Below, one piece after another: positions 8,802 through 15,461 of a DNA stretch of 54,309 nucleotides (within the stretch, counting starts at the first letter, position 1; every line of letters begins with the position of its first letter). Under the pieces are notes generated by a model that worked only from the letters and a program-made list of their open reading frames with translations, did no database searches and had not been told where the DNA came from. Source of the DNA: a virus (taxonomy: Duplodnaviria > Caudoviricetes); IMG/VR virus record IMGVR_UViG_3300002446_000376, positions 1-54,309 of that record; one strand, written 5' to 3'. The position numbers were made by a program, and so were the translations under genes.

Positions 8802-9121
8802 AAATATATATCGCCGCGCCATATACAAATGGAGATGTTGCAAAAAACATTAGAAAAGTTATGGAAGTAGCAAATATTTTAATGGATAGAGGACATTATC
8901 CTTATATTCCTCATCTTACTCATTTTCAGCATATTTATTTTCCACGGCCATATGAAGACTGGTTGAAATTAGATAACGCATTTATTCCTTCGTGCGACGC
9001 ACTATTAAGATTAGAAGGAAAAAGTAGCGGAGCGGATAAAGAAGTTGAATTAGCAAAAAAGTTAGGATTAAAAATATTTTATAATCTATCAGAAATATGG
9101 AATTTAAACAAAACGAAATAA
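8798..9121 (+). CDS. DUF4406 / nucleoside deoxyribosyltransferase-like protein
   Basis: KIYIAAPY...CDALLRL.G.SSGADKEVELA. Confidence 0.75.
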   Translation: MKIYIAAPYTNGDVAKNIRKVMEVANILMDRGHYPYIPHLTHFQHIYFPRPYEDWLKLDNAFIPSCDALLRLEGKSSGADKEVELAKKLGLKIFYNLSEIWNLNKTK

Positions 9122-10734
9122 ATAAAATCTATTGTGGAGACAGTTTAGAAGTTTTAAAAACTTTTCCTGACGATTCGATAGATTGTTGTATATCGTCGCC
9201 TCCCTATTGGGGACTTCGTGATTATGGAATTGGTGGACAAATTGGATTAGAAAAAACACCAGAAGAATATGTTAATAACATAGTAAATATTTATAGAGAA
9301 ATAAAAAGAGTTCTTAAAAAAGAAGGGACTTGTTGGTTGAATTTGGGGGATAGTTATTATAATTATCGGCCAGGAAAAGGGCAACGAGTAACTCCAAATT
9401 CAATAGCAAGTCAAAAAGCAGCAGAAATGGATATTTGCCCAAGGAGAGGAAATATAATCGAAGGACTAAAAGAAAAAGATTTGGTTGGAATTCCTTGGCG
9501 AGTTGCGTTTGCTTTACAACAACCATATTACACAGGAAAAATTAAGGATGAAAAAGATAGGGTTTGGCTTGCGGCTATGGTTGATGCAGAGGGTTCCATT
9601 TGTGGCTCGGAGTATCAAAATAATGGGCGAACTAAAACTAATATCTATATCAGTATCACAAATACTTCAATGCCCATTATAGATAAATGCGAGCGACTTT
9701 TCCCGCAAGAAATAAAACACATTTACGAAAAAAAGAACGAAAACTCCAGCCGCATTTGTTATCGTTGGGATGTAGAAAAGATGGAACAAAAATCACTTTT
9801 TATTCGTGAGATTTATCCACATCTTGTAGCAAAACGAAAACAAGCAATTCTTGGTTATAATTTTTTAGAAATGCAAAAAGGGATAATAAGCAAAAAGAAA
9901 GGATATTTAATTGAACAACAAGAAAAAAGGTCTTGGTTAATAAATGCACTTTCGGAATTAAATAATGGAAAAGATGTTAAATTGCCAAGTTGGATGATTG
10001 AACCACCATCCCTTCTTGAAGAAGGATTTTATTTACGCCAAGATATTATTTGGGCAAAAAACAACCCAATGCCGGAAAGCGTAACTGATAGATGTACAAA
10101 ATCTCACGAATATGTTTTTTTGTTGACTAAATCACCAAAATATTATTTTGATAATGTAGCAATAAAAGAGCCGACCGTTACAAGAAATAAAACAAATAGA
10201 GATAGAGATTCCACCAGATTAAACAACACACCAGGAAGAACAAAAATGTCAGGATTAAAAACTAATGATTATGAAACCCGTAATAAACGTGATGTTTGGA
10301 ACATAAACACAAAACCATTTAGAGAAGCTCATTTTGCAACATTCCCAGAAGCATTAGTAGAACCAATGATAAAAGCAGGATGCCCTGAATTTATTTGTAA
10401 TAAATGTGGAAAGATATTAGAAAAAAAATATGAAAGGGTAGATTCAGAAATTCAACGGCCGAGAAAATTCGGGCATAACGGAAATAACGATAGAAATGAT
10501 ACTGGTGATATTTACAAAGAAAAAATATCAAAGTTTATAGGATATAATGAATGTAATTGTGATGCAGGATTTTCTGGCGGGATAGTTCTTGATCCTTTTA
10601 TGGGTTCGGGCACGACTGGTGTAGTAGCAAAGAAATTAGGACGAAATTATATAGGAATCGAACTTTCGCCAGCATATATTACAATCGCAGAAAAAAGATT
10701 AGCAGAAACAACAAAACAATTAAGTTTAATATAA
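9097..10734 (+). CDS. N4/N6 DNA methyltransferase with in-frame LAGLIDADG insertion
   Basis: SSPPYWGLRDYG, RQDIIWAK.NPMPES, HFATFP, DPFMGSGTT. Confidence 0.9.
   Translation: MEFKQNEINKIYCGDSLEVLKTFPDDSIDCCISSPPYWGLRDYGIGGQIGLEKTPEEYVNNIVNIYREIKRVLKKEGTCWLNLGDSYYNYRPGKGQRVTPNSIASQKAAEMDICPRRGNIIEGLKEKDLVGIPWRVAFALQQPYYTGKIKDEKDRVWLAAMVDAEGSICGSEYQNNGRTKTNIYISITNTSMPIIDKCERLFPQEIKHIYEKKNENSSRICYRWDVEKMEQKSLFIREIYPHLVAKRKQAILGYNFLEMQKGIISKKKGYLIEQQEKRSWLINALSELNNGKDVKLPSWMIEPPSLLEEGFYLRQDIIWAKNNPMPESVTDRCTKSHEYVFLLTKSPKYYFDNVAIKEPTVTRNKTNRDRDSTRLNNTPGRTKMSGLKTNDYETRNKRDVWNINTKPFREAHFATFPEALVEPMIKAGCPEFICNKCGKILEKKYERVDSEIQRPRKFGHNGNNDRNDTGDIYKEKISKFIGYNECNCDAGFSGGIVLDPFMGSGTTGVVAKKLGRNYIGIELSPAYITIAEKRLAETTKQLSLI
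9520..10017 (+). mobile_element. in-frame LAGLIDADG endonuclease domain without intein motifs
   Basis: WLAAMVDAEGSI..ISITNT..YPHLVAKRKQA splits the conserved AFALQ-xxG-FYLRQDIIW. Confidence 0.75.
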
Positions 10735-10735
10735 A

Positions 10736-12460
10736 ATGAACATACTATCACTTTTTGACGGAATTAGCGTTGCCAGAGTTGCGTTAGAACGTGCAAATAT
10801 TAAAGTAGATAAATATTTTTCTTCAGAAATAGACAAGTACGCAATTCAAGTTAGTACAAAAAACTGGCCTGATATTATTCAATTAGGAGATGTTAAAAAT
10901 ATAACAAAAGATACTATTTCTTCATATCAGGGAATAGTAGATATAGATTTGATAGTTGGAGGATTTCCTTGCCAATCGTATTCAATTTCTGGAAATAGAG
11001 AAGGCATAAATGATGATAGGGGAAAATTAGTATTTGAATGTAAAAGATTAGTTGATGAATTGAAACCTAAATTTTTTATTTTTGAAAATGTAAATTCGAT
11101 GTCAAAAGAAAATAAAAAGTTTATAGATAATCTTTTTGGCATTGACCACATAATGATAAATGCTTCTTTAGTTTCTGCTCAAAATCGAAAAAGAATATTT
11201 TGGGTTGGAAAGAGAGTTGGTAATAAATATGTTAAAGTTGAAATTACACAGCCAGAGGATAAAAATATATTTTTAAAAGATATTTTAGAAAAAGAAGTTG
11301 ATGAAAAATACATAACAAAAATGAATTTTACAAAAAGGATTGACTATACTTTACATAAAAATCCATTTGATAAAAAAGCACAATGTTTTAGAGCATCGGA
11401 CTATAAAGGAACTCACAATATGATAGTTTTAGATAACAACGGCAAAGAGAAATTAAAATCAAACACCCTAAGAACAAGTGGGAAAGGGAGTGGGTTAAAA
11501 GATAAACATAATTGGGATACTATTAGGGTCGGCGAAATAGGTAAGGGAGGGCAAGGAGAACGTATTTATTCTATAGAAGGAAAGAGTGTAAACTTAAATG
11601 CAAATGGAGGAGGAAGAGGAGCAAAAACCGGATTATATTTGGTTGGTAATACAAATCCGAGCGGAAATGGTATGAATGGTTGTGTTTATGATAGTAATGG
11701 TAAATCGCCGACGCTAACAACAAACAAAGGTGAAGGAAATAAAGTTTTAGTTAATGAAGTCGTTAGAAAGCTAACTCCCATCGAGTGCGAGCGGTTGATG
11801 TCATTAGATGATAATTATACGCAAGTTTTAGAACCATATATTTTAGATAAAAATTGTGATAAAATACAAGTATGGAAAAATGTATTGTCAAAGATTGCCA
11901 GAGAAAAAAACAAACAAATTGTGGAGCTTGCCTGCTCCATTACAAACGATTTAAAAGACATGGCTCGTTTGATTTATCAAAACGAAAAATCAAAAAATGT
12001 AGATATTGTGATAGAAATGCAATCGCAAGAGAAATGTGTAACAAACATTATCAAAATTGGAATAGGCACAAAGATCCACTCTACACAGATAAAATTAGAG
12101 AAAAAACAAGGAACTCTTTGGATTGTAGAGGATATAAAAGAGGAACTATTGACAGACATGAACATAGAGATATTATGGAAAAACATTTGGGGAGAAAATT
12201 GGGAAGAAATGAAATTGTGCATCACATCAATCTTGATAAAACTGATAATAGAATTGGAAACCTTTATTTGTGCAGAAGATCAAAACATATGCAGTTACAT
12301 AACGAACTTGAGGTTATTGGCGGAAAACTTATTGAAAGAGAAATTATATCTTTTGATGGTGAAAAATACATCATTAATTAGCAACTCTCAAAGATATAAA
12401 TGTTGCGGCAATGCGTTTAACGCAGAAGTAGTGAAACATATATTAAGTTTTATAAAATAA
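10736..12460 (+). CDS. dcm: C5 cytosine DNA methyltransferase with ~185-aa insertion
   Basis: LSLFDG, GGFPCQ, FENV, QNRKR, RKLTPIECERL, RYKCCGNA. Confidence 0.9.
   Translation: MNILSLFDGISVARVALERANIKVDKYFSSEIDKYAIQVSTKNWPDIIQLGDVKNITKDTISSYQGIVDIDLIVGGFPCQSYSISGNREGINDDRGKLVFECKRLVDELKPKFFIFENVNSMSKENKKFIDNLFGIDHIMINASLVSAQNRKRIFWVGKRVGNKYVKVEITQPEDKNIFLKDILEKEVDEKYITKMNFTKRIDYTLHKNPFDKKAQCFRASDYKGTHNMIVLDNNGKEKLKSNTLRTSGKGSGLKDKHNWDTIRVGEIGKGGQGERIYSIEGKSVNLNANGGGRGAKTGLYLVGNTNPSGNGMNGCVYDSNGKSPTLTTNKGEGNKVLVNEVVRKLTPIECERLMSLDDNYTQVLEPYILDKNCDKIQVWKNVLSKIAREKNKQIVELACSITNDLKDMARLIYQNEKSKNVDIVIEMQSQEKCVTNIIKIGIGTKIHSTQIKLEKKQGTLWIVEDIKEELLTDMNIEILWKNIWGENWEEMKLCITSILIKLIIELETFICAEDQNICSYITNLRLLAENLLKEKLYLLMVKNTSLISNSQRYKCCGNAFNAEVVKHILSFIK
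11872..12381 (+). CDS. HNH homing endonuclease nested in an alternative frame of dcm
   Basis: Two C-C-C-H zinc repeats then HRDIMEKHLGRKL..EIVHHINLDKTDNRIGNL..H. Confidence 0.85.
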   Translation: MEKCIVKDCQRKKQTNCGACLLHYKRFKRHGSFDLSKRKIKKCRYCDRNAIAREMCNKHYQNWNRHKDPLYTDKIREKTRNSLDCRGYKRGTIDRHEHRDIMEKHLGRKLGRNEIVHHINLDKTDNRIGNLYLCRRSKHMQLHNELEVIGGKLIEREIISFDGEKYIIN

Positions 12461-12461
12461 T

Positions 12462-15461
12462 ATGCAAATAAAAAAAAGAGATAATAAAATAGTAGAATTT
12501 GATAAGTCTAAAATTGAATCAGCTATTAAAAAAGCAATTACTGCCGTAGGGGAAAAAAAATATTCTGATATTTTATTATCTTCTGTTTTGCAATTATTGC
12601 CCGCCAGCGATACCGTTTCGGTAGAACAAATCCAAGACGTAGTTGAAGATGTTTTGATTGATAACGGATTCAAAAAAGAAGCTAAGGCTTATATTATTTA
12701 TAGAGAGCAGAGGAGGCAAGCAAGAGAGTTTGATGAAGTTAAAAACGAAAGCAATAATAAAATAGATTCTTATCTTGATGATAAAGATTGGGAAGTTAGA
12801 GAAAATGCGAATACTACTTTTTCGCTTCAGGGATTAAACCATTATGGATATTCTTATATCAGCAAAAAATATTGGCTCAATAAAATTTATCCAAAAGAAA
12901 TTAGAGAAGCTTATTATAAAGGAGATATACATATTCACGATCTTGGCGGACTTGCAAATTATTGTGAAGGGTGGAGTCTTATGGATTTATTAAGTAAAGG
13001 ATTTAAAGGAGTTCCTGGTAAAATAGAATCTGCTCCTGCTAAACATTTTAGAACTGCTTTAGGACAAGTTGTTAATTTTATTTTTAGTATGTCGGCTGAG
13101 TGCATGGGGGCAGTGGCTTTTTCAAACTTTGATACATTATTGGCTCCTTTTATTTATTACGATAATCTTAATTATTCTCAGGTAAAACAAGCACTTCAAG
13201 AATTTTTATTCAATATGTGTGTAAGCACTCGTACCGGCTTCCAGCCCGCCTTTTCCAACATAACTCTTGACTTGAGTCCTTCTGTTGTTTATGCAAAACG
13301 GCCAGTTGTTATCGGAGGAAAATTACAAGATAAAACATATTCAGAATTTCAAAAAGAAATGGATATGTTTAACAAAGCATTTTTTGAAACAATGATGGAA
13401 GGGGATTCAAAAAATTCAGTATTCACATTCCCAATTCCGACCATCAATATTACGAAAAATTTTCCGTGGAACAATCCAGCACTCGAACCAATGTGGGAGG
13501 CTAATGCTAAATATGGTATTTGTTATTTTGCAAATTATATCAATTCTGATATGGACCCAAATGACGTTTTAAGTATGTGCTGTCGTTTGTCAATCAGAAA
13601 AGATCAATTAAAAAATCGTGGAGGAGGAGGATTGTTTGGTTCCGGCGATAAGACCGGCAGCATTGGGGTAGTAACGACGAATATGGCTCGTATTGGTTAT
13701 GTTGCAAAAACAAAAGAAGAGTATTTTAAATTGTTGGAAGAGAAAATGGAATTAGCAAAGAAAAGTTTAGAATTAAAAAGAAAAGCAATTGAAAGATGGG
13801 CGGATAAGGGTCTGTATCCATATACTAAATATTATCTTTCAGAAACAAAAGAAAAAAATGGTTCTTATTTTGCAAATCATTTTTCAACGATTGGCCTTTT
13901 GGGTATGAATGAATCTTTGCTAAATTTTATAGGAAAAGATATAGGAACTCCTGAAGGAATTGAATTTACCAAAGAAGTAATGAACTTTATGAGGTCTAAG
14001 CTTTTAGAATATCAAAAAGAAACAGGAAATCTATATAATTTAGAAGCATCACCTTGCGAAAGTTGTCTTGACGGCAATACTTTAATTAAAACGCTTGATG
14101 GAGATTTTGCAATTAAAGATTTGGTTGGAAAAACTCCTGTTGTTTATACTTATGATGAAAAAGATAGAAAAATAAAATTAAAAAAAGCTAATAGAGTTTG
14201 GAAAACAAGCGAAGCTTCCCAAATTTATAGAATTTGGTTTGATGATAGAACTTTTATAGATTGCACAGGCAATCATCCTTTTGCCCATCACTCAAATGGA
14301 AAAGGAACGAAGCCGATTACTTGGGTTCCTGCTGCGTTATTAAAACAAAACTATAGTTTAAAAGCAATAGACTTTAATAATAAAAGATATTGTATTATAA
14401 ATTCGAGACAACATAAAACTCATATTGTATATGAATATTTTTCAGGAGAAAAAATAGAAAAAGGAGAAGTTATTCATCATAAAGACTTTAATAAATTTAA
14501 TGACTCTTATGAAAATTTACAAAAAATGACGGATTCTGCTCATAGAAGACTTCATTATATGGCTTGCACATCTGATTATTGTAAATGTAGAGGAGGCGAA
14601 AAAAATCCTTTTTATGGTCAACATCATTCTGATAAAACTAAAGAAATATTAAGAAATCAACGAGTTGGTAAACCTATTATATTGAAGAATATAACTAAGG
14701 AAGATTTTAGAAAAAAACAATCAGAAATTGCAAAAGCAAAACCATATTATAAACATTCAAAATTTAGAAAGGATATTAAAGATTCGGATATTCTTGATTT
14801 ATATAATGAAGGAAAAAGTGCATATGACATTTCTAAATTATTAAATTGTAATTATAGTCTTATCGTTGGTAGGTTTACAAGACTTAAATTAAATCATAAA
14901 GTTGTAAAAGTTGAATTGTTAGAAGGATTGCGACCAGTATATAACATGGAAGTTGAAGATACTAATTGTTTTTTTGCTGGGTCTGGCGTTTTAGTTCATA
15001 ACACATCGTATAGGATGGCATTAAAAGATAAAAAAGAATTTCCTGATATTATAACAGCAGGCATACCAGAAACTCCTTTCTACACTAACTCAACACAACT
15101 CCCAGTCAATTATACTGATGACGTTTTTGAGGCGTTAAAATTACAAGATGGAATAACTCCTTTATTTTCAGGTGGTTCGGTTCATCATATTTTTGTTGGT
15201 GAGAGATTGTCTGATATAGAAAGTGTAAAGTCGTTAATTAAAACAATATTTACTAAATTTAGAGTACCTTATATATCACTAACTCCTACTTTTTCAATAT
15301 GTGAGGAGCATGGTTATATAAATGGAGAAGTTGATAAATGTCCTCAATGTGATAAAGAAGTTTTAACTTTCTCAAGAATTGTCGGCTACTTGCGCCCAGT
15401 AAAACAATTTAATGAGGGAAAGAAAATTGAATATTCACAGCGAAAGCTTTATAAAATATGA
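12462..15461 (+). CDS. nrdD: anaerobic ribonucleoside-triphosphate reductase with ATP cone and intein
   Basis: N-terminal ATP cone, HIHDL, YCEGWS, SMCCRL, CEEHGY..CPQC, SRIVGY glycyl-radical motif. Confidence 0.95.
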   Translation: MQIKKRDNKIVEFDKSKIESAIKKAITAVGEKKYSDILLSSVLQLLPASDTVSVEQIQDVVEDVLIDNGFKKEAKAYIIYREQRRQAREFDEVKNESNNKIDSYLDDKDWEVRENANTTFSLQGLNHYGYSYISKKYWLNKIYPKEIREAYYKGDIHIHDLGGLANYCEGWSLMDLLSKGFKGVPGKIESAPAKHFRTALGQVVNFIFSMSAECMGAVAFSNFDTLLAPFIYYDNLNYSQVKQALQEFLFNMCVSTRTGFQPAFSNITLDLSPSVVYAKRPVVIGGKLQDKTYSEFQKEMDMFNKAFFETMMEGDSKNSVFTFPIPTINITKNFPWNNPALEPMWEANAKYGICYFANYINSDMDPNDVLSMCCRLSIRKDQLKNRGGGGLFGSGDKTGSIGVVTTNMARIGYVAKTKEEYFKLLEEKMELAKKSLELKRKAIERWADKGLYPYTKYYLSETKEKNGSYFANHFSTIGLLGMNESLLNFIGKDIGTPEGIEFTKEVMNFMRSKLLEYQKETGNLYNLEASPCESCLDGNTLIKTLDGDFAIKDLVGKTPVVYTYDEKDRKIKLKKANRVWKTSEASQIYRIWFDDRTFIDCTGNHPFAHHSNGKGTKPITWVPAALLKQNYSLKAIDFNNKRYCIINSRQHKTHIVYEYFSGEKIEKGEVIHHKDFNKFNDSYENLQKMTDSAHRRLHYMACTSDYCKCRGGEKNPFYGQHHSDKTKEILRNQRVGKPIILKNITKEDFRKKQSEIAKAKPYYKHSKFRKDIKDSDILDLYNEGKSAYDISKLLNCNYSLIVGRFTRLKLNHKVVKVELLEGLRPVYNMEVEDTNCFFAGSGVLVHNTSYRMALKDKKEFPDIITAGIPETPFYTNSTQLPVNYTDDVFEALKLQDGITPLFSGGSVHHIFVGERLSDIESVKSLIKTIFTKFRVPYISLTPTFSICEEHGYINGEVDKCPQCDKEVLTFSRIVGYLRPVKQFNEGKKIEYSQRKLYKI
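14064..15002 (+). mobile_element. 313-aa intein with HNH endonuclease
   Basis: ES|CLDGNT...CTGNHPF...VYNMEV...LVHN|TSYR; IHHKDFNKFND, GEKNPFYGQHHS (NUMOD3-like). Confidence 0.93.

Follow-up and report, generated by a model that had tools for sequence, protein, structure and literature searches.

The window analysed here, a stretch of 54,309 nt with a GC content of 31%, is part of a tailed-phage genome: family matches were found for portal, protease, major head, tape-measure and endolysin proteins. One of its genes codes for a predicted C5 cytosine DNA methyltransferase of 574 aa, of which residues 1-362 match PF00145 (Pfam). Translation and alignment together located the C5 motifs I, IV (PCQ), VI (ENV), VIII (QNRKR), IX and X, in this order. 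Motif IX reads RKLTPIECERLMSLDDNYT and its last base is 11821; motif X, ISNSQRYKCCGNAFN, starts at about 12373. The nrdD gene begins at 12462, 2 nt past the methylase stop codon (TAA, 12458-12460). A second open reading frame, coding for a putative HNH homing endonuclease, is nested inside the methylase gene in another frame. The features of the locus are listed in Table 1.

Table 1. Features of the methylase locus, with positions in the window and the evidence used for each.
Feature	Position	Strand	Evidence
Complete C5 methyltransferase ORF, insert read through	10736..12460	+	PF00145, 164 bits; motif reading
Methylase part 1: motifs I-VIII, target-recognition region and motif IX, ending ..LDDNYT	10736..11821	+	Alignment; AF2 pLDDT
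Insert in host frame, 183 codons replacing 2	11822..12372	+	P0004/P0014 alignment; boundaries accurate to a few bases
5' leader of the element, coding in host frame only	11822..11871	+	Codon comparison between loci
HNH homing-endonuclease ORF, 169 aa + TAG, -1 frame relative to methylase	11872..12381	+	PF13392; AF2; dN/dS
Methylase part 2: motif X (ISNSQRYKCCGNAFN..) and C-terminus, same frame as part 1	12373..12460	+	Alignment; dN/dS

Motifs IX and X are separated by 183 codons in the window methylase and by 2 codons in insert-free relatives, close to the spacing of about 185 codons given in an earlier interpretation made from the letters alone (the sequence-only reading). The insert-free proteins read DNYT-ER-ISNSQRYK (P0004, 72% identical by BLASTP) and DNYT-DG-ISNSQRYK (P0014) at this site; since they have 2 residues there, about 181 codons are extra in the window. 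Alignment with these homologs, which had been proposed as a check, gave the insert boundaries of Table 1, and the methylase frame was found to run without a stop across the whole insert, as had been claimed.

The insert was joined to both flanks in contigs of two other studies, X2 (788 nt) and X5 (854 nt), with 1 difference each. It is genuine DNA and not an assembly artefact. In run X5 a contig end of higher depth carried DNYTEGISNS directly before sequence matching the window from 12388 on, which reads as an insert-free allele present beside the insert-bearing contig in the same sample.

The nested ORF is intact, in line with the sequence-only reading, and matches the HNH family PF13392 (HNH_3) with 36.9 bits against a Pfam cut-off of 24.8. 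Its codons begin one base ahead of those of the methylase: (11872-10736) mod 3 = 2. The ATG lies 51 nt into the insert, and the 50 nt before it are the only part of the insert that the HNH ORF does not cover. At the 3' end the TAG stop overlaps the host codons ATT AGC (I-S) and one further base (C) completes the host codon. Residues H98, H117, H118, N126, N130, H139 and H143 are invariant across 8 HNH sequences. An AF2 model obtained from 8 sequences had a mean pLDDT of 80, and its residues 91-152 aligned to HNH domains only, at low Z values: 4.0-4.6 for Cas8-HNH and 3.9 for I-HmuI (rmsd 2.5, 56 aligned residues). Foldseek of the same model against the PDB gave no match at E<=0.001, and a sequence search against solved structures gave none either.

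No clear Shine-Dalgarno sequence was found upstream of the HNH ATG in the window; GGAG-type sites precede the HNH start in the related loci L049, L058 and L067. A promoter and terminator scan stood at background (14 promoter-like sites versus 12.0 expected) and placed no promoter-like site immediately before the HNH start. A methylase-HNH fusion made by frameshifting was also considered and rejected: at the 8 loci keeping the start ATG, the HNH frame contains a stop 1-12 codons before it (3 codons upstream in the window), so that such a fusion is unlikely.

The sequence-only reading held that a stop-free off-frame of this length would hardly arise by chance in AT-rich DNA, and resampling bore this out. 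The HNH protein was kept fixed and its codons were redrawn at the frequencies seen in the window's 39 other long ORFs; the mean number of host-frame stops expected was 10.7 and none of 20,000 draws was stop-free, against 0 stops observed. When the synonymous codons of the HNH gene itself were shuffled, the mean was 2.9 stops and the probability of none was 0.003-0.004. Across these 39 ORFs no stop-free +1 run exceeds 104 codons, a length reached within a gene of 1211 codons, and the third frame of the HNH ORF contains 26 stops. The codon choice is specific: in window usage TTA accounts for 54% of Leu codons and ATA for 43% of Ile codons; in the HNH gene both occur solely before codons beginning with T or C, and before codons starting with A or G the gene has TTG, CTT, ATT, ATC, GTC or GTT instead. 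The host frame is kept stop-free through codon choice, and chance is excluded.

DNA collections were searched with the HNH-frame sequence or a profile, which made the sampling independent of the state of the host frame, and 89 loci were recovered. In 15 of these (L050-L058 and L063-L068) the HNH gene lies between methylase motifs IX and X. They represent 11 distinct sequences: L050 is nearly the same as the window, L051 equals L063, L054 equals L064, and only 1-2 bases distinguish L056, L057 and L066. A contig end truncates L055. The +1 frame was open for 313-715 codons in all 15 embedded loci, spanning the HNH gene and running into motif X. For the other 74 HNH relatives +1 spans were 2-215 codons, and the three longer than 100 occurred at GC 0.59-0.73. 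Host-frame stops, whose depletion in homologous insertions had been suggested for inspection, were absent through the HNH gene at every embedded locus. Shuffles of own codons in 10 loci gave a probability of no stop of 0.002-0.18 each; the 11 sequences are related by descent and are not independent trials. HNH identities as low as 40-50% mean, however, that turnover has reached most synonymous sites.

The embedded loci belong to two host methylase subfamilies, RKLTPIECERL..ISNSQRYKxLGNA and RRLTPRECWRL..SxSxLYKQAGNS. The HNH stop is always 2-3 codons ahead of the S-x-S/A-Q/L-R/L-Y-K motif, motif X is always in frame with motif IX, and the genes downstream of the methylase vary. Protein searches, to which only open frames are visible, added P0006, P0007, P0009, P0015 and P0123-P0126. 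A profile of the insert matched only 9 clusters in a collection of 5.8 billion, which makes the element rare; genome-contig scans with the HNH profile and with P0027 gave no match, and a search with the insert region alone returned nothing but the query itself. The variant contig L050 appears to show a split-style insertion at another site of the same methylase.

Selection was analyzed in two pairs of loci, L048/L052 and L056/L058, which are close enough to avoid saturation. In the HNH frame dN/dS was 0.20 and 0.21, respectively; over the same bases it was 0.59 and 0.58 in the host frame and 1.8 and 2.1 in the closed third frame. Purifying selection acts on the HNH gene. The exon that follows the insert in the methylase, compared between L048 and L052, showed mostly synonymous codon differences and a dN/dS of 0.07 with dS saturated, indicating both translation in this frame and selection. 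The catalytic part of the insert-bearing methylases P0005-P0009 was 85-90% identical to the insert-free consensus, the mean of the insert-free rows being 86%; that of the window was 71% like the consensus, versus 83% for its insert-free sister P0004.

The element itself differs at 6-20% of sites in the same two pairs while its flanks differ at 23-59%. This divergence, 3-5 times lower, may point to transfer of the element between diverged methylases. In a tree of methylase residues 1-362 (45 rows, 9 of them insert-bearing) the insert-bearing rows were scattered and 6 changes of insert state were needed. The window methylase was sister to the insert-free P0004 (SH-aLRT 98), and P0007 to the insert-free P0075. 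An AU test of the insert-bearing methylases as a single clade gave p=0.063, short of formal rejection. The scattered distribution and the divergence lower than that of the hosts both fit homing.

Signs of decay of the nuclease were also seen. In L057 and L066 one base change turns TTA into TAA in the HNH frame and Tyr into Asn in the host frame, and the L056 lineage has ATA at the position of the relatives' start ATG. P0006, P0123-P0126, P0027 and P0119 are further insert-bearing entries counted among those whose HNH gene is decayed.

We also asked what the host-frame dN/dS may say about the loop. A simulation in which the HNH gene was under selection matched to the data and the host frame only avoided stops, all nonsynonymous changes being treated alike, gave a host-frame dN/dS of about 1.0-1.1; the observed 0.58-0.59 lay at tail fractions of 0.005 and 0.06. 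This is a weak hint of dual coding, because the simulation ignores the conservative tendency of first-position changes. Only 2 pairs of free-standing HNH genes were usable for an off-frame comparison, with dN/dS of 0.77 and 1.36. In each of 15 pairs, third-position identity was higher in the HNH gene than in the methylase core; because the element is younger than its hosts, this comparison is confounded, and it was set aside as evidence of a dual constraint. We consider it unlikely that the overlap of about 170 codons is true dual coding, with the host-frame loop itself under amino-acid selection; in that case the loop might, for example, contribute to methylase function or restrain the HNH protein.

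The 5' leader of the element was compared separately. Its peptide has a pattern that is conserved between loci, L-x-L/I-D/E-K..F/Y-G-N/K-I..W, and several of the codons that vary between loci do so without changing the host-frame amino acid. This pattern lies outside the HNH overlap and is a second hint of selection at the level of the loop.

Taken together, the element is probably a homing HNH gene that no splicing removes and that appears in the methylase protein as a loop with little structure. Ribosomes would read the methylase straight across the element and thereby add about 183 residues at the IX-X hinge, and survival would be limited to copies of the element with no host-frame stops. 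Translation of the HNH protein would start at its own ATG within the same mRNA. It would cut insert-free methylase alleles of co-infecting phages near the conserved sequence coding for motif X, and repair of the cut allele would copy the element in. After fixation the HNH gene would be free to decay, and the host frame would have to remain open. Read-through of the loop, internal initiation and homing are the steps we infer.

AF2 modelling of the whole methylase gave pLDDT values of 74-96 over residues 1-190 (10-residue block means; 61 for residues 81-90), 68-86 at motif IX, 64-92 at motif X and below 50 across residues 366-546, the host-frame insert. The low loop values are weak evidence, because values below 50 were also obtained in the methylase's own target-recognition region (residues 215-340) and the input alignment had misplaced insert-free C-termini, setting them against the start of the insert.

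The sequence-only reading proposed dual coding as the way in which a homing endonuclease leaves its host gene intact, and this is supported by the frame open in 15 of 15 loci, by the negative intron and intein scans, and by the fit of the low divergence and the scattered distribution. The word overprinted, which it applied to the HNH gene, has the direction wrong: HNH has free-standing relatives, so the novel reading of these bases is the host-frame one. It left three mechanisms side by side, a tolerated loop, excision and ribosomal bypass. The tolerated loop is favoured, and splicing and bypass are disfavoured since neither of them requires an open frame. Phage group I introns often carry HNH genes, and one GenBank record of a related mycobacteriophage element carries the remark 'unable to determine intron boundaries'; an unrecognised intron, self-spliced or host-spliced, could thus carry the HNH ORF and be missing from the mature mRNA. 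We hold this to be quite unlikely. A search of Rfam gave no hit above the gathering threshold anywhere in the window and, between 11400 and 12800, no relevant one even at E<=10, and the 50 nt outside the ORF, all at the 5' end, leave no room for a group I intron core, as had been pointed out. An intron also gives no reason for the stop-free host frame of all 15 loci. The insert-skipped form was not seen in contigs of 4 runs, which is weak evidence as these are DNA or probably DNA. Among the runs listed as holding the stretch there was no RNA run, and the one labelled 'RNA?' covers only 11552-11782, has no joints in it and is probably DNA. Bypass of the insert in the style of T4 gene 60 would be extremely improbable. 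In gene 60 a stop follows the take-off codon and the gap is 50 nt; here the gap is about 550 nt, no stop is in frame, and the host frame is selected to be open although bypass would not need it. The association with an HNH gene is what speaks for it: Bonocora and colleagues are said to have linked the T4 bypass sequence to the HNH gene mobA in 2011.

Two further explanations were considered. Removal of the host-frame peptide after translation, by non-canonical protein splicing or by proteolysis, would need the open frame just as a retained loop does, and a Ser often follows the insert region (I-S-N-S). Inteins are recognised by a Hint splicing domain, an N-terminal Cys or Ser, and a C-terminal His-Asn followed by Cys, Ser or Thr. 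The insert begins with Q, A, E or N and ends with L, F, S or K (Q..L in the window), so the statement of the sequence-only reading that intein termini are missing stands, the ends being variable between loci. AF2 gave no Hint-like fold, and the Pfam scan that picked up the intein of NrdD next door matched no family, and so no intein domain, in the host-frame translation of the insert. We regard removal of the peptide as very unlikely. The insert-bearing methylase may instead be inactive, or its N-terminal part may work alone, with the open frame serving some other purpose, for instance translational coupling to nrdD. The position of nrdD directly after the methylase stop and the lower similarity of the window's catalytic part to the consensus would agree with this. 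Coupling is insufficient, as it leaves the conserved in-frame motif X unexplained: past the insert this motif is conserved as protein while synonymous change is saturated, and it is in frame with motif IX in every locus. The other insert-bearing methylases are moreover as conserved as the insert-free ones, and different genes lie downstream at different loci. An inactive or coupled methylase is therefore unlikely.

To our knowledge, homing endonuclease genes have been thought to persist in essential or useful genes only by means of an intron or intein that removes them. A third way, in which the loop stays in the protein and the nuclease is read in another frame, was proposed in 2025 for actinophages (PMC11855218). 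The genomes behind that proposal are GC-rich, and open off-frames are common in such DNA; the AT-rich loci described here make selection for an open host frame statistically firm and are the clearest statistical evidence for it so far. With them the strategy is seen at one more insertion site and in one more methylase subfamily, and it extends beyond phages of Actinobacteria; in one lineage the nuclease is decaying while the host frame persists. Gene callers overlook nested genes of this type, and the annotation is that of a long 'methylase'.

The phenomenon described in the sequence-only reading is not new, having already been published for mycobacteriophage methylases. The ShiLan domain is a 'hidden' out-of-frame HNH insertion in the DNA methylases of these phages (Gosselin et al. 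2023, PMC9957025; Arsenault, Gosselin, Gogarten 2025, PMC11855218), and our tblastn matches fell on ShiLan-type mycobacteriophages. According to PMC11855218, its host frame has no stops, the HNH gene starts at a GTG 18 nt into the insert and its TAA lies within the last four bases; neither an intron nor an intein was identified there, its occurrence among methylases is disjunct, and the interpretation of a retained loop was also reached. A further case is reported in a genome announcement (PMC12613952). Our literature search, supplements and the authors' repository aside, found no such element reported outside actinophages.

The likeness to the ShiLan element is extensive. Its host is also a phage C5 methylase, KashFlow and Thibault showing FAGIGG, PCQ, ENV and QRRRR. 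The HNH frame is likewise -1, with (2138-1638) mod 3 = 2 in KashFlow and Schatzie, and in the same two phages the HNH stop plus one base completes a host codon, corresponding to the 'TAAC' of PMC11855218. Shared as well are the host frame with no stops, the failure to find an intron or intein, the disjunct distribution among methylases, an element less diverged than its host and a host-frame fold of low confidence. Between the two HNH cores, identity is 52% over 67 residues.

The differences concern the site, the endonuclease and the hosts. In cluster J phages the insertion is located just after motif VIII (QRRRRLFFV), whereas the site in the window is between motifs IX and X; the ShiLan GTG and the window ATG are 18 and 51 nt into the insert, respectively; and the N-terminal DNA-binding parts are unrelated, only the HNH core being alignable. 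ShiLan hosts are GC-rich Mycobacterium phages, whereas the hosts here are AT-rich uncultured phages of 27-42% GC, so that the open frame is not attributable to base composition. The element described here also occupies the second methylase subfamily. By these comparisons the window element and ShiLan are of the same kind but not the same element, and the insertion site, the DNA-binding part and the AT-rich hosts are what is new.

Other known systems share part of this organization. Pacc40 gp60 also contains an out-of-frame endonuclease-like ORF in a phage methylase that is read through in frame; the methylase family, the site and the endonuclease are different, and its HNH assignment is considered less certain by the authors (PMC11855218). 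Inteins are similarly in-frame inserts at conserved sites of phage genes that spread by homing endonucleases, and in some actinophage inteins the endonuclease is out of frame or antisense, according to bioRxiv 10.1101/2025.01.02.630785. Unlike inteins, the window insert has no splicing domain, so nothing removes it from the protein. Free-standing HNH genes, finally, split or flank phage genes, as in the case of T4 mobE and of the nrdA gene of Aeromonas phage Aeh1, which is split by mobE. Both have in common with the window element homing with no intron and an insertion tolerated by the host gene; they interrupt the gene with real stop and start codons, whereas the host ORF of the window is continuous.

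The NrdD gene, which encodes an anaerobic ribonucleotide reductase with a conventional intein, starts 2 nt past the stop codon of the C5 methylase; the window therefore holds three neighbouring genes, each with an endonuclease-type insert. Four families were matched in the NrdD intein: Intein_splicing, HNH_3, NUMOD3 and HTH_38. The third gene of the run, located upstream from the C5 methylase, codes for a N4/N6 DNA methylase containing an in-frame insert of approximately 170 residues that includes LAAMVDAEGS. No intein domain was found in this insert, and its match to LAGLIDADG_3 was weak (E 0.012, under the cut-off). Coordinates are compiled in the table.

Features of the window and of related loci
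Feature	Location	Strand	Remarks
N4/N6 DNA methylase, neighbour of C5 methylase	window 9097-10734	+	PF01555, matched in 3 stretches
NrdD, anaerobic ribonucleotide reductase	window 12462-15461	+	conventional intein, ~residues 550-847
216-aa ORF replacing methylase N-terminal half	L050 82-732		HNH-like C-terminus; separate ORF
1032-codon open frame around HNH relative	L033 2112-5210		GC 47%; also overlaps C5 methylase N-terminal ORF
431-aa ORF around HNH relative	L047 2388-3683		GC 41%

The region 11300-12700 of the window was present, whole or for the most part, in public DNA runs from 12 studies, the metagenomes of which are labelled as hydrocarbon, oil-production, landfill, groundwater and wastewater; contigs from 4 runs were compared with the region.

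A variant of the methylase locus was found in contig L050, which is 98.6% identical to the window across 1347 nt, the alignment beginning at window position 11159. The N-terminal half of the methylase is missing from that place in L050 (positions 1-775), where the separate ORF is located instead, and the rest of the methylase gets a new ATG after this ORF. Judged from the sequence, the arrangement has the appearance of a split-gene style insertion into a different site of the methylase. Of the 19 differences between L050 and the window, 15, most of them synonymous, are clustered within 110 nt of the junction, in a pattern resembling a co-conversion tract.

In two further loci, L033 and L047, HNH relatives are enclosed by long ORFs, here in the other relative frame, +2. 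These may be additional nested cases or may be due to chance.

In GenBank, the same locus of the Mycobacterium phages KashFlow, Schatzie and Thibault is annotated in three different ways: as a single 508-aa 'DNA methylase' with the HNH read through, as an HNH CDS accompanied by a misc_feature with the text 'unable to determine intron boundaries', and as separate fragments.

At the protein level, two methylases (P0027 and P0119) showed mutually related in-frame inserts of approximately 210 residues, located after RLQSLPE and before GYTWGISNSQRYK, about 5 codons upstream from the IX/X insert site; this insert differs from the IX/X insert of the window, and the search for DNA encoding it had no hit. 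Methylase P0015, also viewed as protein, has two inserts: the IX/X insert and a second, polar, in-frame one of approximately 250 residues directly after motif VIII (RKRLFF|). The site of the latter is the insertion site of ShiLan, the published out-of-frame HNH element of mycobacteriophage methylases. The insert of the N4/N6 methylase, in turn, is similar to one described for the ShiLan methylase family under the name 'lone LAGLIDADG'.
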